64,000 nucleotides of DNA, taken from positions 4,787-68,786 of the forward strand of contig CAJAQO010000038.1 of the NCBI GenBank assembly GCA_903944085.1, read 5' to 3'. The position numbers and the translations under genes are program-made. This stretch comes from an uncultured Verrucomicrobia subdivision 3 bacterium. GTDB taxonomy: Bacteria; Verrucomicrobiota; Verrucomicrobiia; Limisphaerales; UBA11358. Of the stretch, positions 1,525 through 28,834 are shown piece by piece. The notes under the pieces were generated by a model. That model saw only the letters and a program-made list of their open reading frames with translations, made no database searches and was not told the origin of the DNA. How positions within the stretch are numbered: the stretch's first letter is position 1; each line of letters begins with the position of its first letter.

Positions 1525-2259
1525 ATGAAGTCTAGCCTCGTTATCTTCATGGCTATGCTTCCGTTGCTCTTGCCCGCTGCTGAAAATCAGGAATACGTCA
1601 TTCTGCTTCACGGCCTGTGTCGCACCAGTCGCTCGATGCTGCCGATGGAACGGGCGTTGGCGAAAAGCGGCTATCACGTCCTGAATGTGGATTATCCGTC
1701 CCGCACGGCTGGAATTGAAAAATTGAGCGAGGAAGCGATTGGCCAGGCGGTGGCCGATTGCCAAAAGGCTGGCGCGGAAAAAATCCATTTAGTCACTCAT
1801 TCGCTCGGCGGGATTTTGGTGCGCAGTTATTTGTCGCGGCACAGCATTCCAAATCTTGGGCGAGTGGTCATGCTTGGGCCGCCGAATCAAGGCAGCGAAG
1901 TGGTGGACAAATTGGGCTCGTGGTGGATTTTCAAGCAGCTCAACGGCCCGGCGGGAAATGAGCTGGGCACGGACAAAAATTCCACGCCAAACAAACTCGG
2001 CCCGGCGCATTTTTGCGTGGGCGTGGTGGCCGGCGACCATTCAATCAATTGGATCAACAGCCGGCTGATTCCCGGCCGCGACGACGGCAAGGTTTCTGTC
2101 GAACGCACCAAGCTGGCCGGGATGGCCGACCAGATTGTCATTCACGCTTCACATCCATTTTTGATGCGCAATCGGACGGCCATCCGGCAGACGATCTGTT
2201 TTTTGCGCGCCGGGCGATTTGAACCGGTTTCGGCAACGCGGATTGGGAAAGTGGTTTAA
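1525..2259 (+). CDS. secreted alpha/beta-fold hydrolase (lipase/esterase-like)
   Basis: N-terminal signal peptide (MKSSLVIFMAMLPLLLPAAE), an LLHGL oxyanion-type motif, and the nucleophile elbow THSLGG. Confidence 0.8.
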   Translation: MKSSLVIFMAMLPLLLPAAENQEYVILLHGLCRTSRSMLPMERALAKSGYHVLNVDYPSRTAGIEKLSEEAIGQAVADCQKAGAEKIHLVTHSLGGILVRSYLSRHSIPNLGRVVMLGPPNQGSEVVDKLGSWWIFKQLNGPAGNELGTDKNSTPNKLGPAHFCVGVVAGDHSINWINSRLIPGRDDGKVSVERTKLAGMADQIVIHASHPFLMRNRTAIRQTICFLRAGRFEPVSATRIGKVV

Positions 2260-2354
2260 GTTCACGCTCCTCCAGATTCCAATGCTGGCGTTGTTTGCGG
2301 GCGCGGCGCTGCTGGCGGAATCTGGCTGCGCCAGCCTTGCCCGGCCACTTCCCA

Positions 2355-2389
2355 GAACGAAAAGGCCGGAATGACAAATCATACCGGCC
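2355..2389 (-). terminator. rho-independent terminator, minus-strand orientation
   Basis: Minus strand reads GGCCGGtATGA-tttg-TCATtCCGGCC followed by TTTTCGTTC. The plus-strand reading has no T-tract. It therefore terminates a minus-strand transcript coming from the 2400-2720 region. Confidence 0.5.
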
Positions 2390-2520
2390 CTCGCAGAAAT
2401 TTTTAATCACCAAGCCTAGGTCGCCATGTGGCTGACCGGCTCGCTCCACTCGCGGCGCTGGTTGCCGACCCCATGCACGCAGACGCGGATGGCCGGCGCG
2501 GCCATCTGTAATTCTCCGTT

Positions 2521-2662
2521 TTTCCTTTGAAGAGTGGCCGGCAACCTTTGAAGGTTTCGGTGCGACCTTTGAAGGTCGAGCCAGGACCTTTGCCAGTTGC
2601 GACGTAACCTTTGAACTTTACGCCGAACCCTTTGAAGGTTTTGATAAACCCTTTGAAGAGAA
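2521..2662. repeat. 7 x 21-bp phased direct repeats, each with a CCTTTGAAGG-centred inverted repeat (operator/iteron-like or RNA mini-hairpin array)
   Basis: CCTTTG cores start at 2524, 2545, 2566, 2587, 2608, 2629 and 2650, exactly 21 bp apart. The best units are AACCTTtgAAGGTT (2543-2556) and CGACCTTtgAAGGTCG (2563-2578). Spacers between cores are unrelated. Confidence 0.85.
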
Positions 2663-2764
2663 ATGAGCGGTTCTTGCCCCAATGTGTCTCAAAACCCGTC
2701 CGGCGCATACAATTATGTATTAAAACAGGACAAAACCGGATTGCACGACGCCATGCGAGGTGGC

Positions 2765-3262
2765 GTCAGGCATCTTTGCCTGACGTAGAGGGCGAGCATC
2801 CTTGCTGCCCGGACAAAGACGGACGGATTTTACCGCGTTGCCAAATGTTCTGGGACGTATGGCTGGCCGACGGTTGGCTGGAAGTCCCGGCTCTACGGCA
2901 GGCAGGATGCCTGCCGCCACCGCAGGCCGAAGGCAGTTTGGGGTGGACGAACGGGAGCGGAGTGCGGCTGTCCCCGGCCGCAGCAAGGTCCAAAGCGCGA
3001 CGCGCATTCGCCAATCCGATGCCGGCCGGTTTAGCCATGTTGCAGCGCCCGGGGACGGGCGCGCTCCGTAGTGTCAGGCATCTTTGCCTGACGTAGAGGG
3101 CGGGCATCCTTGCCGCCCGGACAAAGACGGACGGATTTTACCGCGTTGCCAAATGTTCGGGGACGTGTGGATGGCCGACGGTTTTTTCCGCCGGGCTGGA
3201 AGCCCCGGCTCTACGGCAGGCAGGATGCCTGCCGCCACACCGGGCCAAAGCCAGTTTGGGTT
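2765..3262. repeat. tandem duplication (308-bp offset) of a composite GC-rich hairpin repeat element
   Basis: GTCAGGCATCTTTGCCTGACGTAGAGGGCG.GCATCCTTGC.GCCCGGACAAAGACGGACGGATTTTACCGCGTTGCCAAATGTTC starts at 2765 and again at 3073. Both copies continue through GGCTCTACGGCAGGCAGGATGCCTGCCGCCAC. Each copy contains three stacked hairpin modules. Confidence 0.8.
2932..3069 (+). repeat. repeat family A, copy 1 (about 135 bp; ends in GTTGCAGCGCCCGGGGACGGGCGCGCTCCG)
   Basis: Aligns by eye along its whole length with 13081-13216. A 3' fragment recurs at 58683-58716. Confidence 0.7.
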
Positions 3263-3515
3263 GGACGAACGGGGTAAAGGGCGGTTGAATTCGTATGCGA
3301 GTTTCGTGCGCGATGAAAAAGCGGTGGAGGGCCACCGCACTCCAAAACGCTGGCGCGTTGACCGATGACCACCGAACCGCGCGAAGCGTCTTGGAGTGCG
3401 CCAGCCCTCTGGCGCTTTGGGCGGCCGATGGAATTTAACACTAAGGCGCAGAGAATGGTGACCGTCGGCAATGACCTGGCCAAAGTGCGTTTGCTCACGG
3501 GAGCAAAAGGCAAAG

Positions 3516-3601
3516 GAAGAAGTATGAATGAAGAATGAAGAAATAAAATGGCAACCGGCTCGCGTCGGCGTTAATTCATCATTCATCATTCATACTTCTT
3601 C
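3516..3601. repeat. inverted repeat built from 7-nt tandem units, overlapping the 3' end of the MFS gene
   Basis: GAAGAAGTATGAATGA (3516-3531) is perfectly complementary to TCATTCATACTTCTTC (3586-3601). The arms extend as TTCATCA/TTCTTCA heptamers. The right arm encodes the last MFS codons and its stop. Confidence 0.75.
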
Positions 3602-4825
3602 ATTCGGCGACGACTCGTCGCCGCTATGCGATGGCAGTTCTCTTTGATCCTTAAAGGCGATCAGGAAATAAGCCAGCACCACGACCACCAACGCCGTCAA
3701 GCCCCACCAGAACAGCGGCCAGTGCGTGCGGTTCACGGGCGTGCAGGCGGCGAACCACCAGCCGCTGCCGAGGTAGCCAATGAGGTTGCCGATGCCGCCG
3801 TTCAGCAGCGTCATCAAGGCCTGCGCCCGCGTGCGCCACGCAGGATCAATGCGCTGGTTCAGGTAAATTTGCGCGGTGATGAACACCAGCACAAACGATG
3901 CGCCGTGCAGCGTCACGCCGAGCAGCAATGAACTGTCCGTGTTCAGCGCGCTCAGCGCGAACCGCACCACGCCGAAGACCAGGCCGCAGGCGAAAATCCA
4001 TTTCAACCGCCAATGATGCAGCAGCCACGCGAGGCTGAACATGGCGACGATCTCGCTGATTTGCGCCAGGCTCATCCACGCGCTCGTGTGCGCGAAGCCG
4101 CGTTCGTGCAGGTGCGCCGGCGCATAGGGATAAAACGCGCAGAGCGGAATGTTGAACAGCGTGGTGGTGATGAAGACCACGCGCGTGTCGCGGTTTTTCA
4201 AGAGCGTCAGCGCGTCGAGTCCGAGCCGTTCGCGCCAGGAAAGATGTTCGGCGGAAGGCGGAATTACCAGCGCCGGCAGAAAATAGGTGAACGCCGCCAC
4301 CAGCAGCCAGATGACCGCGCCGAGATACCCGGCCAGCGCCGAGCGGTCCAGGCTCAACAGCCCGATGAGCAGCGCGCCGGCCATCCAGCCGAGCGTGGCC
4401 AGCGCGCGGACGGAGCCGAATTCTTTTTTGGCATTCTCCAGGCGCGCGAGCACGAGCGCCGTGGAGATGCTGAACATCGGCGCATAGGACAGCGAAAAAA
4501 TCTGGATCAGCGCCAGCACCAGCCACGGATTCCAGCCGTTCTGAATGGCGGTGGCGATGACCGCCGTGGTCACGCCCGTGGCCGTGGCGAGCCAGCGCAG
4601 CACCTTGGCCGGCGGCACATGCCGGTCGGCCATCGCGCCAAACATGAGCGGGGAAATGAACGCCGCCACGCCGATGGCCGCGAACGCAAATGGCTTGATG
4701 CTATGCAGTCCATTCGCATCCAGGATGGTGCCGAGCGGCACAAACCAGATGGCCATCGCCACCGCCTGGATGAAGAATAAAATCATCAGCTCGGCGTATT
4801 CGGCTTTGCGCAACGTCCGTAACAT
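3590..4825 (-). CDS. MFS transporter (nucleoside:H+ symporter-like)
   Basis: About 12 predicted TM helices. The N-terminal region (MLRTLRKAEYAELMILFFIQAVAMAIWFVPLG..) resembles NHS/YegT-type MFS proteins. I chose the ATG at 4825 because the longer ORF to 4990 reads through repeat family C. Confidence 0.8.
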   Translation of the reverse strand: MLRTLRKAEYAELMILFFIQAVAMAIWFVPLGTILDANGLHSIKPFAFAAIGVAAFISPLMFGAMADRHVPPAKVLRWLATATGVTTAVIATAIQNGWNPWLVLALIQIFSLSYAPMFSISTALVLARLENAKKEFGSVRALATLGWMAGALLIGLLSLDRSALAGYLGAVIWLLVAAFTYFLPALVIPPSAEHLSWRERLGLDALTLLKNRDTRVVFITTTLFNIPLCAFYPYAPAHLHERGFAHTSAWMSLAQISEIVAMFSLAWLLHHWRLKWIFACGLVFGVVRFALSALNTDSSLLLGVTLHGASFVLVFITAQIYLNQRIDPAWRTRAQALMTLLNGGIGNLIGYLGSGWWFAACTPVNRTHWPLFWWGLTALVVVVLAYFLIAFKDQRELPSHSGDESSPNEEV

Positions 4826-4890
4826 TGGCGCGGAGAATAACAGGCCCGTGCGCAGAATTAAAGAACGGGACAACCGCCGCCCCAGCTTTG

Positions 4891-4970
4891 GGAGTGCGCG
4901 GACAAGTCCGCGCTTTGGAACTGGAAGACAGGTCTCCCAGTCGGCAAGCGGCGACGTGTCGCTGCGCTCC
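4891..4970. repeat. repeat family C, copy 1 (three-hairpin element of about 80 bp)
   Basis: GGAGTGCGCGGACAAGTCCGCGCTTTGGAACTGGAAGACAGGTCTCCCAGTCGGCAAGCGGCGACGTGTCGCTGCGCTCC. A near-identical copy lies at 40511-40595. Confidence 0.7.
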
Positions 4971-5155
4971 ATGCGCGGCCAACCACTCATTGGCCGAGGC
5001 TTGGCTCGGAATTAAAACTGGCGGCGGAACGGCGACGACCAAAGCGGGCGGCGCGCGCAATAATACGCAGCAAATAAGCGGAGCATAACCACCATTTGAA
5101 AACTGGTGTTGCCAGCAGCCTGATTCCCGGCCGCGAGATTTTTATTGGGCCAAGT

Positions 5156-22321: not shown

Positions 22322-25300
22322 ATGTTTATGAAAACGCCGAAGTTAGTGTTTGTAACCATATTTGCCGTGCTGGCCGCTGCCGCAATTCAGGCGCAGACCG
22401 TCAGTCGGCTAGTTCTGCGTGGGCATCATGTGCCGCCGGGGGTGGCGCAGTTGCCATCTGCCGGACGACTTGAGTCGGCGCAGTCGCTTGAATTGACCAT
22501 TGGCCTGCCCTTGCGCAACCAGGCGGCACTCGACAGTTTCTTGCAGGAGTTATATGACCCGGCCAGTCCAAGCTACCGCCACTTTCTGACGCCGCAACAA
22601 TTCACCGAGCTATTTGGACCGACAAAGAAAGATTACGCGGCGGTCGTCGCCTATGCCCAGGCCAACGGCTTCACTGTAACCGCCACAGATCCCGGTTGCG
22701 TTTTGGTCAGCGTGCGCGCACCGGTCGCCGTCATTGAGAAGGCGTTTCATGTGAACCTGCAGTTATACAAGCATCCACGCGAAGCGCGTAATTTTTTTGC
22801 GCCGGACGCCGAGCCGACGCTGGATCTGGCCGTTCCCATCCAGGACATTGGCGGCTTGGACGATTATGTTGTGCCGCATCCAGCCGGCCTGGTTCGAAAG
22901 CCGCTTCCGCCGGCAGGCGCGTCCGCCGCCGCCACGCCGCAAAGCGGTTCGGGATCGGGCGGCACTTATGCCGGCGATGATTTCCGCGCGGCCTATGCGC
23001 CGGGAGTGACGCTGACCGGCACCGGTCAGTCCGTCGGACTGCTTGAATTTGGCGGCTACTACAGCAACGATATTGTCTATTATGAGAATACGTTTGAATC
23101 TAGTAACTACGTTCCGATTGTAAATGTGCTGTTGAACAGCGTTTCAAACATCACCAACAATCCCGGAGCGGAAGAAGCGCTGGACATTGAAATGCAGATT
23201 GCGATGGCACCGGGAATAAGTTCGATCTATTACTACGACGGCAGTTCGGTGGACACTATCTTAAGCCGTATTGCCAGCGACAACACGGTCCACGAAGTCA
23301 GCGCTTCGTGGTTATACGGCACGAGCGGCAACACGGACGGCTATTATCAACAATTGGCCGCGCAAGGAATCACCTTTCTCAACGCCTCCGGCGACAGCGA
23401 TGCCTATCCGGTGGGCACAAGCATTGACGCGTGTTGCAGCACGCCGTATGTCACGTCGGTGGGAGGGACTACTTTGAGCACGACGGGACCGGGCGGTTCT
23501 TGGAGTTCTGAGACGGTATGGAACTGGGGTGGCGGAACGGGCGGCAGCGGCGGCATCAGCACCAGCTATACCATTCCAAGCTGGCAAACCAACATCAGCA
23601 TGATCGCCAATCAGGGTTCGACCACCATGCGAAATATCCCGGACGTGGCTTTGACGGCCGATAACATTGATGTTTACTACAATGGTTCCTGGGGCAGCTA
23701 TGGCGGCACGAGTTGTGCCACACCGTTGTGGGCGGGCTTCTTGGCGCTGGTGAACCAGCAGGCCGCCTATTACGGTGAGCCACCGATCGGCGCGCTCAAT
23801 CCGGTCGTCTATGCCATCGGCAAAAGTTCGACTTACGCCGACGCCTTTCACGACATCACCGCCGGCAACAATTACAATAGTTCCAGTCCCACCAATTTCC
23901 CGGCGGTGGCGGGCTATGACTTATGCACGGGTTGGGGAACACCGATGGGACAAGCCACGATTAATGCGCTCGTCCCGCCGAACTTTCAGATCACGCCGCT
24001 GGCTGGCTTTATCTCTTATGGCCCGCCCGGCGGTCCGTTCGGCGTGAACTCACAGAACTTTATTCTTACTAACGTATCTTCACAACTATCGTTTACCTGG
24101 TTTCTTTCCAACACGTCGGCTTGGCTCAATGTTTCCTTCACCAATGGCAGTCTGGCTCCAAATGGTTCGACGACGGTCACCGTGAGTTTAAATCCGACCG
24201 TGGTCAACAGCCTGGCGGCGGGGAGTTACTCAACGACCATTTTGTTCACTAACCAAAACCAAGTCTCCGCACAAACCCGGACCTTTAGTCTGGTTATCGG
24301 CAATAACTTTGACGTTTGGACCGGTGGCAACAGTCCAAATGGCAATTGGAGCAGCCCAATTAACTGGCTTGACGCGGTCGCTCCCAATTCCAATGGAGAC
24401 AACCTGGTTTTCGCCGGCAGCGTCCAGCCCATCAGCACCAACAATTTAATTGTCTCCGCCGGCTGGGTGCAACTTAACCCTGGTGTAGCCTTAACTATTT
24501 TTGGAAACTCATTGTCCATTGCTGGCGGGCTAACCAATTCCGCCCAGAACAACACTTGGAACCTTCCGTTGACGCTCAACGCGGGCCAGAATTTTGCGGA
24601 GGCTTCCGGCACCACGCTTACGCTGGCCGGAGTGGTTTCCGGCGGCAACGGCTTGGTTGAGTCTGGACCGGGCACGTTGCTATTGGCAGCCACCAATACT
24701 TATACGGGACCAACCACGATCAATGCCGGCACTTTGACGCTCGGTGGAACCGGCACATTAGGCGGCGGCAGCTATGTCGGCAACATCGTGGACAATGGTT
24801 CCTTGGCTTACAACAGCAGTTCGGCGCAAACTTTAACCGGTGTCATTTCCGGCACAGGCACTGTGCTGCAAGGCGGAGGCAACTTAACGCTGGCAGCCGC
24901 CAATACCTACTCCGGCTCAACCACCATTAGCGCCGGCTCCACACTGGTAATCGCTCCCAGCGGCAGTTTGGGCAGCGGAAAAAATTATGCCAATGTCATT
25001 GCCGGGGGCGGCGGCCTGACTTACAACGGCACCGGCACGCAGACCTTGAGCGGGGTCAATACCTATTCCGGCCCGACGCTGGTAAACTCTGGAATTCTAT
25101 TACTCACCAGCGGCGGCAGTGCTGGAACGGTCGGCAATTCCGCCATCCTCGTGAACAATGGTGCTGAACTAGACTTGAATGGCAGTGACGTGCTGGGATA
25201 TTCCAGTGGCAGCGCCATGACGGTGTATGGCACTGTTAAGAAAATATACAATCAAGCGGAAACGCTTTATCGCCCGATCACGCTTTCCGGCGGCACACTC

Positions 25301-28300
25301 ACCAATACCTTGACGACGTTGCAGCAAGCCTATGAACTTTACGGCGGATATATTGCCACCGCAGCCAATACCACGAATGCCATCACGCGCCCCGGCCAGT
25401 TTGGCTTGCGCACCAGCACGGCCTATTTCACCAATGCGCCGGGCAGCGTGCTTAACATCTCGGCTGTGATTTATCCTTACACAAGCGGCTGTCCTTTGAA
25501 CAAGCAAGGGGCGGGCAAAATGGTGTTGAGCGCGGCCAATACTTACTCCGGCAACACCGTGGTTGGCGGCGGCATCTTGGCCCTGACCGGGTCCGCCTCG
25601 ATCGCCAGCAGTCCGGCGATCCTGATGAATCCTTCTGCTTTGTTCGATGTGTCTGGTCTAGCCAGCACGTTCACGCTGGGCTCCAGCCAGTCGTTGACGG
25701 CCGGTAATCCCGGAGCAGCGATGACTAACATCAACGGCAATTTCAGCAGCGGTGGCACTATCAACGTGGCTGGCTCTGGCATGGCTGGGACGCTATCGGT
25801 TAACGGCAATGTTGCCCTCACGGGCGGCACGTTGATATACGATCTGGGTTCCGGGGTTTCCGATCTCATCACCCTCGAAGGTGTCGGCCGCACTCTATCT
25901 TTGGGTGGCACCATCACGGTCTCGCCAGCGGCTGGTGTGGTTCCGAATGGAACCTACACCTTGGTTAATGGCATCACCAGTGTCACCAGTGGCGGGCCGG
26001 GAAACCTGGTGTTAAGCGCGCCCGGCACTATTCGCGGAACGGCGGCGGCGGCTTTCACGACGTCGCCGCCAAATGTAACTATGACTGTAAGTGGCGGAAC
26101 TCCGTCGGCGCTTCTCTGGAAAGGCAGTGCGACCAATGCGAACTGGGACGTTACCACGACTTCCAACTGGCTGAACAGCGCTGCCGCCGACGAGTTTTAT
26201 AACCTTGACATGGTTACGTTTGGCGACAGTCCCGGAACCAACTATATCTTAGTCGCTGGAAACGTAGGTCCGAGTTCCATGGTCTTTAACAACACCTCGA
26301 CGGTTTATGCGCTGACCGGCTCTGGCGGCATCGTTGGCGGAGGCAGCCTTACCAATAGCGGAAACGGCACCTTGATCATCAGTGGGACCAACCATTTTGC
26401 GGGCGGCACCACCATCAGCGCGGGCACCGTCTGTGTTGGCAGCACGAATCTGGGTTTGTTTGTCAGCCTGGGTGAAAATCCGGCCAGCCTAGGCACCGGG
26501 CCGCTTAACTTGACCGGCGGGACGCTGAAGTTCGCTCCGGGCAGCTCCGGAAGCTCGTTTTATTTCACCAATCCCATTACGCTTAACGGCGGCATTATTT
26601 GGGGCGAGGATGGCGAGCAACATTTGATTGGTCCGCTTAATGTCGGAGCGGTTGGCGGCACGCTCACCGTAAAGTGGGATACCAAGAGCTTGTATGTGGA
26701 TTCTTTGGTGACTGGTTCCGGTCCACTAACCGTGAGTAACGCGAATAATAACACCAGCGGACTGCATCTTTCCAATCCGGCAAACAATTATTCGGGCACG
26801 GTCACGGTCAAAGGCTCCATTGTCCAACTCGATAACTCTTATGCTTTATCCAATGCCATTGTCAATTTGACCGGTGGCACGCTGGCGTGGGGCGGCGGCG
26901 TGACCAACATTGTGCTCGGCGGTTTGTCCGGCACGACCAGTTTTGGCAATAGCGGCAACGCGCTTGCGGTCGGCAACAACAATTCCTCCAGCACTTATTC
27001 CGGCGCGCTGTCTGGCACGGGCACGCTTACGAAACTTGGCACCGGAACTCTCATCCTGGCCGGCAGCAACACTTATTCGGGCGCAACCTTGGTCAATGGT
27101 GGAACTCTGCTGGTGAACGGTTCGCTGGCGGCCGGCAGTGCGGTGACGGTGGCGGCAGGCGCGACGCTCGGCGGCTCCGGCATCATTGGTGGGTTGACTG
27201 TGGTCAGCGGCACCCTTGCTCCCGGCACCAACGGTGTCGGCCGGTTGACCATCAGCAGCAATCTTGTATTGGCCGGCCAGACTTTGATAGCGGTGAGCAA
27301 AAACGGCGGCGTGCCGACCAATACCATGGCCGTCATCACGCGGACTCTGACCGAGGGCGGGATGCTGACGGTGACTAACATTGGCACGAACGCGCTGGCC
27401 GCCGGCAACAGTTTCAAGTTGTTCAATGCCGGAACGTGGGCCGGCGGCTTCACAAATTTCAGCCTGCCCGCACTCGCCAACGGGTTGCATTGGAACCTGA
27501 ACACGCTGGCCACAAATGGCACGCTCGCCGTGGCTTGGAACACCTATAACTTGACTTACGCGGCGGGATTAAATGGCACTCTATCCGGCGCTGCGACACA
27601 AACGGTGAATTATGGCAGCAGCGGTTCGGCGGTTACAGCCGTGCCCAACGCGGGCTACAACTTCGTGAGTTGGAGCGACGGCAGCACGGCTAATCCGCGC
27701 ACGGATAACGGCGTCACCAACAACATCAGCGTCACCGCGAATTTTGCGATCAGCACCTACACGCTGACTTACACGGCCGACGCGAATGGCACGATCTCCG
27801 GCACCACACCGCAGACCGTGAGCTACGGCGCCAGCGGAACGGCAGTCACCGCCGTGCCCAATGCGGAATGTTATTTCGTCAACTGGAGCGACGGCAGCAC
27901 CGCCAACCCGCGCACCGATGCCGGCGTCACCACCAACCTCAGCGTCACGGCAAATTTCGCCATCAACACTTATACGCTCACCTATCTTGCGGGAACCAAT
28001 GGCACGCTCTCCGGAGCCACGCCGCAAATGGTGAACTATGGCACGAGCGGCCTGCCGGTGAGCGCTATTCCCGGCACGGGCTATTCCTTTGTCAACTGGA
28101 GCGATGGCAGCACAGCCAATCCGCGAACTGACTTGAACGTGACGAGCAACCTTTTGGTGACGGCGAATTTCGTGATCAACACTTACACGTTGATGTATGC
28201 GGCCGACACGAACGGGATGATTGGCGGGACAAGTCCGCAGACGGTGACCTATGGCGCGAGCGGTGACGCGGTGTCGGCGGTGCCCAACCTCGGTTATGGT

Positions 28301-28834
28301 TTCACCAACTGGAGCGACGGTTTGACGGCCAATCCGCGCATTGACACAAACGTGACCACCAATGTCAATGTGACGGCAAACTTTGTGCTCAATACTTACA
28401 CGTTGGCCTACCTTGCGGGAACGAATGGCACTATTTCAGGTATTACGCCGCAATCGGTGAACTACGGCACCAATGGAACGCCGGTGAGCGCCGTGCCCAA
28501 TCCGGGTTTTGCTTTCCTCAACTGGAGCGATGGCCGCGCAGCCAATCCGCGCACCGATACCAATGTGACCAACAATCTCGTCGTGACGGCGATCTTTATA
28601 AACTCTGTGCCGCCGGTGATCACCGGCATGGGCATGTCGGTTGGTGGCGGATTCACCTTGGGCGGGACTGGCGGCGTGGGGCAGACTTATATTTTGTTGA
28701 CGTTATCGGATCTCCTATCGCCAGTGTGGACGCCCATTGCGACCAACAACGCGGACACGAACGGGTTCTTTAACTTCAGCGACGCGCAGGCGACGAATTT
28801 CCCGCAGCGGTTTTACCGTTTGCTGTCCCAGTGA
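22322..28834 (+). CDS. giant secreted protein: pro-kumamolisin activation domain + S53 sedolisin peptidase + autotransporter-associated beta-strand repeats + 5 InlB-type B-repeats + C-terminal RFYRL domain
   Basis: Signal peptide is present. The activation domain includes DPASPSYRHFLTPQQF. The S53 core includes GGTSCATPLWAGFLALVNQ. Many G.GTL.L.G.NTY.G.T.I..G.L repeats follow. Five units of 71 aa carry W(S/T)DG..ANPRTD. The protein ends in QRFYRLLSQ. Confidence 0.9.
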   Translation: MFMKTPKLVFVTIFAVLAAAAIQAQTVSRLVLRGHHVPPGVAQLPSAGRLESAQSLELTIGLPLRNQAALDSFLQELYDPASPSYRHFLTPQQFTELFGPTKKDYAAVVAYAQANGFTVTATDPGCVLVSVRAPVAVIEKAFHVNLQLYKHPREARNFFAPDAEPTLDLAVPIQDIGGLDDYVVPHPAGLVRKPLPPAGASAAATPQSGSGSGGTYAGDDFRAAYAPGVTLTGTGQSVGLLEFGGYYSNDIVYYENTFESSNYVPIVNVLLNSVSNITNNPGAEEALDIEMQIAMAPGISSIYYYDGSSVDTILSRIASDNTVHEVSASWLYGTSGNTDGYYQQLAAQGITFLNASGDSDAYPVGTSIDACCSTPYVTSVGGTTLSTTGPGGSWSSETVWNWGGGTGGSGGISTSYTIPSWQTNISMIANQGSTTMRNIPDVALTADNIDVYYNGSWGSYGGTSCATPLWAGFLALVNQQAAYYGEPPIGALNPVVYAIGKSSTYADAFHDITAGNNYNSSSPTNFPAVAGYDLCTGWGTPMGQATINALVPPNFQITPLAGFISYGPPGGPFGVNSQNFILTNVSSQLSFTWFLSNTSAWLNVSFTNGSLAPNGSTTVTVSLNPTVVNSLAAGSYSTTILFTNQNQVSAQTRTFSLVIGNNFDVWTGGNSPNGNWSSPINWLDAVAPNSNGDNLVFAGSVQPISTNNLIVSAGWVQLNPGVALTIFGNSLSIAGGLTNSAQNNTWNLPLTLNAGQNFAEASGTTLTLAGVVSGGNGLVESGPGTLLLAATNTYTGPTTINAGTLTLGGTGTLGGGSYVGNIVDNGSLAYNSSSAQTLTGVISGTGTVLQGGGNLTLAAANTYSGSTTISAGSTLVIAPSGSLGSGKNYANVIAGGGGLTYNGTGTQTLSGVNTYSGPTLVNSGILLLTSGGSAGTVGNSAILVNNGAELDLNGSDVLGYSSGSAMTVYGTVKKIYNQAETLYRPITLSGGTLTNTLTTLQQAYELYGGYIATAANTTNAITRPGQFGLRTSTAYFTNAPGSVLNISAVIYPYTSGCPLNKQGAGKMVLSAANTYSGNTVVGGGILALTGSASIASSPAILMNPSALFDVSGLASTFTLGSSQSLTAGNPGAAMTNINGNFSSGGTINVAGSGMAGTLSVNGNVALTGGTLIYDLGSGVSDLITLEGVGRTLSLGGTITVSPAAGVVPNGTYTLVNGITSVTSGGPGNLVLSAPGTIRGTAAAAFTTSPPNVTMTVSGGTPSALLWKGSATNANWDVTTTSNWLNSAAADEFYNLDMVTFGDSPGTNYILVAGNVGPSSMVFNNTSTVYALTGSGGIVGGGSLTNSGNGTLIISGTNHFAGGTTISAGTVCVGSTNLGLFVSLGENPASLGTGPLNLTGGTLKFAPGSSGSSFYFTNPITLNGGIIWGEDGEQHLIGPLNVGAVGGTLTVKWDTKSLYVDSLVTGSGPLTVSNANNNTSGLHLSNPANNYSGTVTVKGSIVQLDNSYALSNAIVNLTGGTLAWGGGVTNIVLGGLSGTTSFGNSGNALAVGNNNSSSTYSGALSGTGTLTKLGTGTLILAGSNTYSGATLVNGGTLLVNGSLAAGSAVTVAAGATLGGSGIIGGLTVVSGTLAPGTNGVGRLTISSNLVLAGQTLIAVSKNGGVPTNTMAVITRTLTEGGMLTVTNIGTNALAAGNSFKLFNAGTWAGGFTNFSLPALANGLHWNLNTLATNGTLAVAWNTYNLTYAAGLNGTLSGAATQTVNYGSSGSAVTAVPNAGYNFVSWSDGSTANPRTDNGVTNNISVTANFAISTYTLTYTADANGTISGTTPQTVSYGASGTAVTAVPNAECYFVNWSDGSTANPRTDAGVTTNLSVTANFAINTYTLTYLAGTNGTLSGATPQMVNYGTSGLPVSAIPGTGYSFVNWSDGSTANPRTDLNVTSNLLVTANFVINTYTLMYAADTNGMIGGTSPQTVTYGASGDAVSAVPNLGYGFTNWSDGLTANPRIDTNVTTNVNVTANFVLNTYTLAYLAGTNGTISGITPQSVNYGTNGTPVSAVPNPGFAFLNWSDGRAANPRTDTNVTNNLVVTAIFINSVPPVITGMGMSVGGGFTLGGTGGVGQTYILLTLSDLLSPVWTPIATNNADTNGFFNFSDAQATNFPQRFYRLLSQ
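27545..28609 (+). repeat. five tandem 213-bp coding repeats (InlB B-repeat / Listeria-Bacteroides repeat type)
   Basis: Units start at 27545, 27758, 27971, 28184 and 28397. Consensus: YTLTY.A..NGT.SG..PQ.V.YG.SG..V.AVPN.GY.FVNWSDGSTANPRTD..VT.N..VTANF. Confidence 0.85.

Follow-up and report, generated by a model that had tools for sequence, protein, structure and literature searches.

The question raised by a short stretch of non-coding DNA in an uncultured Verrucomicrobia subdivision 3 bacterium (assembly GCA_903944085.1, contig CAJAQO010000038.1, positions 4,787 to 68,786; these 64,000 nucleotides as a whole are referred to as the window) is what reads a series of small sites that recur at a constant distance. 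Seven cores with the sequence CCTTTG start at 2524, 2545, 2566, 2587, 2608, 2629 and 2650, a constant step of 21 bp, within a gene-less gap (2260-3589) of 1.3 kb on which an alpha/beta-hydrolase gene (1525-2259, plus strand) and a nucleoside-symporter gene (3590-4990, minus strand) converge. An initial annotation had described both the phased cores and the gap with its convergent flanking genes, which is borne out, and had offered as interpretations an operator, iteron or centromere-like array for a dimeric protein, a minus-strand RNA carrying mini-hairpins and a decaying minisatellite. The reading favoured here, to which we give a probability of roughly 0.45, is that the array is read as duplex DNA, its sites forming a lattice on which a regulator, probably a sigma-54 activator, binds and oligomerises.

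When the window was simulated 200 times with a first-order Markov model, CCTTTG chains in phase reached a length of at most 1 (198 simulations) or 2 (two simulations), as compared to 7 in the real sequence, which contains 33 such hexamers on both strands. The array is AT-richer than the window (G+C 50% versus 58%) and is not called by Tandem Repeats Finder, because only the core repeats. Read on the minus strand, units 1 to 6 consist of TTCAAAGG or GGCAAAGG followed by a 13-nt spacer, unit 7 comprises the final core TTCAAAGG only (2531-2524), and the unit consensus is TTCAAAGGTTTCGTCGNAACC. The nearly invariant core of 9-10 nt originally perceived holds in part, as CCTTTGAAG[GA] is matched by only five of the seven window cores, with CCTTTGCC in the unit at 2587 and CCTTTGAAC in the unit at 2608, while the truly invariant core of the family introduced below is CAAAG on the minus strand. 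The spacers, which had been considered unrelated to each other, carry a weak consensus, and window units 1 to 5 align unit for unit at about 85% identity with two related arrays (L147 and L148) without any change at core positions 3, 6 and 7. The palindromes noted at 2543-2556 and 2563-2578 are both present.

The window array is one member of a family. With an open reading frame (ORF) of 101 codons that runs through the window array and encodes heptads with F, K and G (the FKG ORF) as query, a single metagenomic 'hypothetical protein' was matched, to which a profile search added eleven, and HMMER, run exhaustively against 1.84 billion representative proteins, yielded only about 15-20 true relatives. 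From the DNA of the protein matches and one metagenome scan, 14 further distinct arrays of 2-13 units each were recovered from metagenome contigs (L120, L128, L129, L130, L133, L134, L136, L144, L147, L148, L149, L150, L151 and L159). Every array keeps one 21-nt register, amounting to about 120 strict cores, and over 120 units C3 and A6 are invariant while A4, A5 and G7 are conserved to 94-98%. The register is kept although the adjoining non-coding DNA accumulates indels, with 4 gap events per 85 mismatches in one comparison and 4-10 gap events per 17-19 mismatches in others. On the strand equivalent to the minus strand of the window, most arrays share a common order of parts, namely block P (TTTTGTCCYGTTTYAAYACATWAYTG), 0-14 nt of variable distance, block A (ATTTTGAGACACATTKGGGCAAGAGCCGCTCAWWTCCC), 2-13 units and box B (GAAACGGAGGATTGGGACATGGC). 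Synteny with the window was found at none of the related loci, and nothing related was found among 2.9 million viral contigs. Rfam gave no match for the region at E-values up to 10 or for the whole window at gathering level, and nothing relevant to the array family was found in the literature. The array family is a conserved, lineage-restricted non-coding module that was previously undescribed.

In a genome-wide scan, a pattern of three units retrieved more than 119 loci, nearly all of which were whole-unit 21-bp minisatellites of Nostoc or other organisms with no consistent frame and unrelated to the window family. The more than 100 cyanobacterial loci among them, mostly from Nostoc (L001-L119), contain CCTTTGAAC within the repeat, for example TGAGCCTTTGAACTCGGAAGT.

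What the arrays may be for is suggested by the six complete copies (L128, L133, L134, L149, L150 and L159), in which the array is followed by the same gene, encoding a protein of 205 amino acids with a C-terminal FN3 domain. This FN3 family has more than 327 members with 64-92% identity and no characterised member; domain searches with the protein gave only a weak fn3 match, and nothing meaningful was found in PADLOC. Between array and FN3 gene, five of the six loci carry TGGCAT-N5-ATGCT, which matches 9 of 11 sigma-54 consensus positions including GG-N10-GC. All six share TGGCA and the ATG of the -12 element without variation, and TGCT occurs in five with TGAT, a near match, in L150; the 5-nt spacer of the promoter varies and conservation collapses upstream of it. 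An apparent upstream ORF ATG before the FN3 gene is part of this sigma-54-type promoter and is lost in L128. Downstream follows a highly conserved 5' untranslated region (UTR) of about 75 nt with an invariant TCAAA about 35 nt past the -12 element.

The distance from the last core to the promoter ranges from 52 to 188 bp in the six FN3-linked loci. Measured from the nearest 10.5-bp multiple of the array register, the promoter is offset by -0.5, +2, -1, -2, +0.5 and 0 bp; it thus lies in helical register with the array within ±2 bp in six of six loci, which, with the loci taken as independent, has a chance probability of about 0.01. Two of the FN3-linked loci, L134 and L149, possess 11 intact units without blocks P and A, and the array is therefore independent of the putative promoter and 5' leader. 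A further sigma-54 promoter inside block A (TGGGGCAAGAACCGCT) was considered and dismissed, as GG-N10-GC is kept by no more than 3-4 loci, while L128, L129, L133 and L147 have lost it.

Cumulatively, these contexts suggest how the lattice would work. The regulator would recognise CAAAG, probably as dimers on the 18-bp pseudo-dyad GNAACCTT-CA-AAGGTTNC, and the spacing of the sites by two helical turns would place the bound molecules on one side of the helix, where they would be able to oligomerise. In the complete copies the array would act as the enhancer of the sigma-54-type promoter that drives the FN3 gene, and because the array is located upstream of, and in register with, this promoter, the regulator is most likely a sigma-54 activator (bacterial enhancer-binding protein). 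The lineage uses such activators: a sigma-54-dependent response regulator (Response_reg, Sigma54_activat and HTH_8 domains; L151 1970-3322) is encoded about 1 kb from the array of L151, the only array locus with a sigma-54 activator as neighbour.

The closest precedent is the NtrC enhancer at glnAp1/glnAp2 of E. coli, where 2-5 irregularly spaced sites with dyad character precede a GG-N10-GC promoter. The complete copies resemble such an upstream activating sequence in that dyad sites on one helix face precede a GG-N10-GC promoter and would be bound by an oligomerising activator. By analogy to glnAp1/glnAp2, where activator sites likewise lie where they would occlude a second, upstream promoter, the bound lattice might also block transcription from block P. 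Unlike the NtrC enhancer, the arrays have 2-13 sites, a strict 21-bp period and a strongly asymmetric core, and most copies, including that of the window, are without a sigma-54 promoter.

That the reader acts on duplex DNA is suggested by the symmetry of the sites. The unit consensus is symmetric about two dyad axes, complementarity extending to 62-65% of positions compared to 14-53% in slid registers, while unit-by-unit covariation is absent once near-duplicate units are removed (P = 0.17-0.41). A symmetric consensus without compensatory change is expected from half-site recognition on duplex DNA and not from RNA helices. Of the interpretations in the initial annotation, the operator for a dimeric protein is thus the one that gains support, from the two-turn phasing, the dyad without covariation and the sigma-54 promoter in register, while its iteron or centromere variant does not, as rep and par genes are missing and contexts vary.

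A possible though less probable reading places the element at the RNA level: block P would be the promoter of a small RNA (sRNA) or leader of about 350 nt from the minus strand, the UUCAAAG repeats of which bind and titrate an RNA-binding regulator according to the principle of CsrB and CrcZ, with the motif in the 5' UTR of the FN3 gene as the target. As in CsrB, RsmY/Z and CrcZ, many short motifs in variable number are combined with promoter-like and terminator-like signals, which bracket the copies without FN3 gene in a fixed orientation; CrcZ itself is under sigma-54-linked control. The highly conserved 5' block is reminiscent of sRNA 5' domains, the cores of the gene-less copies remain under purifying selection, the motif is confined to the arrays and not dispersed, and TCAAA in the FN3 5' UTR is invariant. 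The core positions C3-A6 are the most accessible in predicted RNA ensembles (unpaired 0.53-0.85 as compared to 0.17-0.45 in the spacer), and the whole transcript is predicted to fold somewhat better than shuffled sequence (z = -2.8).

On the other hand, covariation was found in none of the four helices considered. The mini-hairpins of the initial annotation, corresponding to the core hairpin ACC-UUCAAA-GGU, show no covariation; the apparent pairing excess of a spacer hairpin GGUUUC-GUC-GAAACC is gone after removal of near-duplicates; a block A hairpin has clade-specific extensions only; and box B pairs with the cognate last unit no better than with non-cognate ones (P = 0.89). Known sponge RNAs do not show an exact 21-nt spacing free of indels, the motif is CAAAG and neither GGA nor CA-rich as in CsrB-type sRNAs, and the GGA motif of the CsrA type is avoided, with an A after GG in 1 of 120 units. 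The lack of a match in Rfam even at E = 10 and the absence of blocks P and A from L134 and L149 also count against an RNA, for which helical register with a sigma-54 promoter would be meaningless. The variant in which the RNA is a regulated leader of a small ORF (sORF) fails, as neither start codon nor peptide is conserved (see below). Likenesses of the site to those of CsrA, IHF, CtsR, the marbox and HMG/LEF-1 (CCTTTGAA) are partial only, and none fits the invariant positions.

The DNA lattice has to be weighed against the copies that lack the promoter. Nine of the 15 copies, the window included, are orphans without a sigma-54-like promoter within 700 bp. One orphan type (window, L147, L148 and L151) has been kept through species-level divergence, as seen from a unit order shared at about 85% identity and from unchanged core positions 3, 6 and 7, and terminator-like hairpins follow the orphan arrays of the window, L129, L136, L147, L148 and L151. 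Bound at the window orphan, a lattice could only gate a short transcript or serve as a sink for the regulator.

Several observations weigh against the DNA lattice. The nine orphans keep invariant cores without a sigma-54 promoter, for which a pure enhancer model gives no explanation, and it is mainly this that limits confidence. The fixed orientation with respect to blocks P, A and box B and the downstream terminator-like hairpins resemble a transcription unit, and a DNA model assigns no role to block A, with 89% identity over 38 nt, or to the Shine-Dalgarno (SD)-like box B. The core is strongly asymmetric: its CA centre is invariant and not palindromic, and the right half-site is conserved much better than the left, which is odd for a symmetric dimer. 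Up to 13 sites are far above known sigma-54 enhancers. When about 140 kb of related sequence were scanned with a position-weight matrix, no isolated site scoring at least 20 was found outside the arrays, and an activator gene shows no consistent linkage to the arrays and is absent from the window. The helical-register test comprises only six related loci. Finally, most arrays were found via FKG-frame ORFs, which biases the sample to arrays without frame-breaking indels; L159, which was found through the neighbouring FN3 protein alone and not through the FKG ORF, nevertheless has the array upstream, likewise perfectly phased. Membership of a family, phasing, non-coding status, the sigma-54 promoter beside relatives of the window array and its helical register are directly demonstrated. 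A protein on duplex DNA as the reader, a sigma-54 activator as its identity and the function of the orphans are the three components that we infer.

A quite unlikely extension is that the orphans, being the majority, are kept as dedicated sinks for the CAAAG regulator, either as DNA decoys or as sponge RNA, and that the unit number of 2-13 sets the threshold at which FN3 is switched on.

It is decidedly unlikely that the family is functional but the window copy a relic without function, left by truncation or transposition of the array/sigma-54/FN3 cassette or of a mobile promoter module and not yet decayed. Neither an FN3 homologue nor a sigma-54 promoter is near the window array, the locus is syntenic with no relative, repeats resembling miniature inverted-repeat transposable elements (MITE-like repeats) directly adjoin it, its box B is more diverged than elsewhere and unit 4 is degenerate. 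Yet six of the seven cores are perfect, blocks P and A are intact, and the orphan type to which the window belongs persists beyond the species level. Putative mobile promoters are homologous upstream regions shared by genes that are otherwise unrelated; as with these, the same upstream module of 150-400 bp is found before unrelated genes or none and beside dispersed repeats, but the family is set apart by the phased array inside the module and by a single partner gene that recurs.

It is very improbable that the array stems from an integrated plasmid or other mobile element, as its iterons, origin or a centromere-like array, or that it is no more than a variable number tandem repeat. The gamma origin of R6K comprises seven 22-bp iterons, and further comparators are RK2 and the ParR/omega-type centromere arrays. 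Phased direct repeats of 21-22 bp, about two turns apart, with conserved core and variable spacers that would support a cooperative lattice are common to these and to the family, and L147 and L151 differ in unit number (11 versus 5) between orthologous flanks of 88-90% identity. Furthermore, primase-like and relaxase-like genes flank the FN3 locus L163 (2486-4375), while in seven other contigs, where array and protein are identical, an IS110 transposase adjoins instead, a hint at mobility or rearrangement of the region. In contrast to iterons and centromeres, no rep, par or DnaA-box features occur in 15 contexts, which are varied chromosomal intergenic regions, relatives in viral contigs are missing, and the link to the sigma-54 promoter and FN3 gene has no counterpart. 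The 520 nt upstream of the FN3 gene, including a 12-unit array, are identical in eight contigs from different samples with the same FN3 protein, and neither whole-unit identity nor a call by Tandem Repeats Finder points to a variable number tandem repeat. The decaying minisatellite of the initial annotation is rejected because diverged loci retain an invariant core and those eight contigs have the same copy number.

The perception of the locus by gene callers is a different one. They annotate the FKG ORF in about 15 contigs, and a real small protein built from F-K-G heptads, which might form a helix like a phenylalanine zipper as in L159 (FKEFLKL), would be in line with the exact heptad spacing, the a/d-type Phe pattern of the L159 version and in-frame stops below expectation (1 in 120 units versus 5.4; P = 0.013). 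Such a protein is scarcely credible. In the core a single codon is used for Phe (TTC 84/84) and Lys (AAA 112/112), compared to 54% and 56% in long window ORFs (P about 1e-23 and 1e-28), and Gly is mostly GGT while the genome prefers GGC (65%). Synonymous-site conservation, which the initial annotation had taken as the mark of an ordinary coding repeat, was assessed with an outcome against coding: the information content of the spacers is highest at third and lowest at second codon positions, and mismatches at codon positions 1, 2 and 3 number 74, 107 and 59 in 84 orthologue-like unit comparisons, so that paralogous units and orthologue-like comparisons alike show the reverse of a coding pattern. 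Depending on the locus the start is ATG, GTG, TTG or none; TGA interrupts the frame in the middle of the array in L144 and TAA in block A of L159; and the unit count spans 2-13. The depletion of stops is accounted for by the dinucleotide classes of the units, Pfam has no match for the ORF, and true relatives are few. As judged from these comparisons, the FKG ORF is almost certainly not a gene and the 'hypothetical protein' annotations are spurious, the practical lesson being that gene callers label such arrays as hypothetical proteins with FKG heptads. An alternative LQR frame (start TTG in caTTGggg), in which wobble falls where the units are least conserved, is rejected as well: 6 stops interrupt it over 5 arrays, compared to 5.9 by chance, and its TTG start is lost in L133-type loci. 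Over all arrays the spacer information content oscillates with a period of 3 nt and is lowest at unit positions 11, 14 and 17, although no frame is consistently open.

The second reading frame of the locus, a 29-codon sORF, is also probably not a gene. Its start codon is absent at that position in 4 of 12 relatives, and two synonymous and three non-synonymous substitutions separate the L129 and L136 versions. The elements assigned to the minus strand by the initial annotation are all present, GGAG-N8-ATG at 2517-2503, the 29-codon frame to 2416 and the hairpin with U-run at 2389-2355.

With respect to other repeat architectures, the ToxR heptads (TTTTGAT) at ctxAB and the ArcA and PhoB arrays are similar as variable phased direct repeats before a regulated gene with lineage-dependent copy number, but their period is 7 or 11 and not 21 bp, and the family described here differs by conservation of only an 8-nt core and by orphan copies. 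The ToxI type III toxin-antitoxin system shares the succession of promoter, tandem repeats, terminator-like hairpin and a gene for about 200 amino acids, while its repeats are near-identical and 34-45 nt long, as opposed to 21-nt non-identical units. A type III toxin-antitoxin system was discarded, as the downstream FN3 protein has no match to ToxN or a defence system.

If the lattice reading is true, the family represents a lineage-specific module that can move between loci and exists with as well as without its target promoter, and in which as many as 13 sites, each exactly two helical turns from the next, make the enhancer-like architecture unusually regular. The CAAAG-N16 motif provides a handle for finding the cognate regulator, and the module points to a role of the widespread, highly conserved FN3-domain protein. 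The orphan copies are a natural test of decoy arrays that tune regulator availability in bacteria; were they sinks, gaining or losing repeat units would tune the strength of a titration circuit.

The window copy itself is an orphan consisting of blocks P and A, seven units, box B and terminator, without sigma-54 promoter or FN3 gene (Table 1). The 64 kb contain neither an FN3 homologue nor the activator motifs GAFTGA and Walker A, and no sigma-54-like promoter with at least 9 of 11 matches lies within 13 kb of the array. Gene content (3-keto-disaccharide hydrolase, GFO_IDH_MocA and PATR domains) suggests Verrucomicrobiota/PVC as the source. Block P holds a -10-like CATAAT and is a candidate promoter as judged from its sequence; it is not called in a sigma-70 consensus scan. 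The 3' half of block A, which is single-copy within the window, is a degenerate unit (GGCAAGAA...) in array register. Box B comprises the SD-like GGAG (2517-2514), the ATG (2505-2503) and a 7-bp GC hairpin over that ATG, and is kept at the nucleotide level with or without the start codon; the window version is more diverged than other copies. About 110 nt of GC-rich sequence separate box B from the terminator, which a simple terminator scan misses as its loop exceeds 8 nt.

Table 1. Elements of the window copy and the sigma-54-type promoter of related loci
Feature	Position	Strand	Remark
Block P, conserved upstream block TTTTGTCCTGTTTTAATACATAATTG	2710-2735	-	found in 11 of 14 related loci
Block A, conserved 5' box GGTTTTGAGACACATTGGGGCAAGAACCGCTCATTTCTC	2658-2696	-	89% mean identity, 11 loci (alignment A3)
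Array, 7 units of 21 nt	2524-2657	-	position-weight-matrix scores 14.6-27.4, one 21-nt register
Box B AAAAACGGAGAATTACAGATGGCCGCGCCGGCCA	2490-2523	-	diverged copy of family box GAAACGGAGGATTGGGACATGGC
101-codon ORF, FKG heptads	2403-2708	-	frame annotated by gene callers in relatives; judged non-coding
29-codon sORF MAAPAIRVCVHGVGNQRREWSEPVSHMAT	2416-2505	-	about 65% DNA similarity to L129 and L136, same stop position; probably not a gene
Intrinsic-terminator-like GC-rich hairpin, then UUUUCGUUCU	2355-2389	-	end of minus-strand unit
TGGCAT-N5-ATGCT	L128 5320-5335; L133 6510-6525; L134 6462-6477; L149 2632-2647; L159 2413-2428		

Dispersed repeats are found in the same gap. Two direct copies (2760-2955 and 3068-3273) of a palindrome-rich MITE-like element of about 200 bp are 91-94% identical, and a related copy in L120 (2186-2347) has 88% identity to the neighbouring window segment 3246-3407; several array loci are situated inside such repeats. 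At the 3' end of the nucleoside-symporter gene, a long AT-rich hairpin (3513-3604) with 34-nt arms that are 88% complementary yields spurious microRNA matches in Rfam. With two copies of 84-86% identity in L128 (2346-2445 and 2501-2604), it is a dispersed element as well. Elsewhere in the window, a 2170-codon ORF (22322-28834) contains a 213-bp tandem repeat (27599-28125; 2.5 copies, 73% matches), which probably corresponds to a domain repeated within a giant surface protein.

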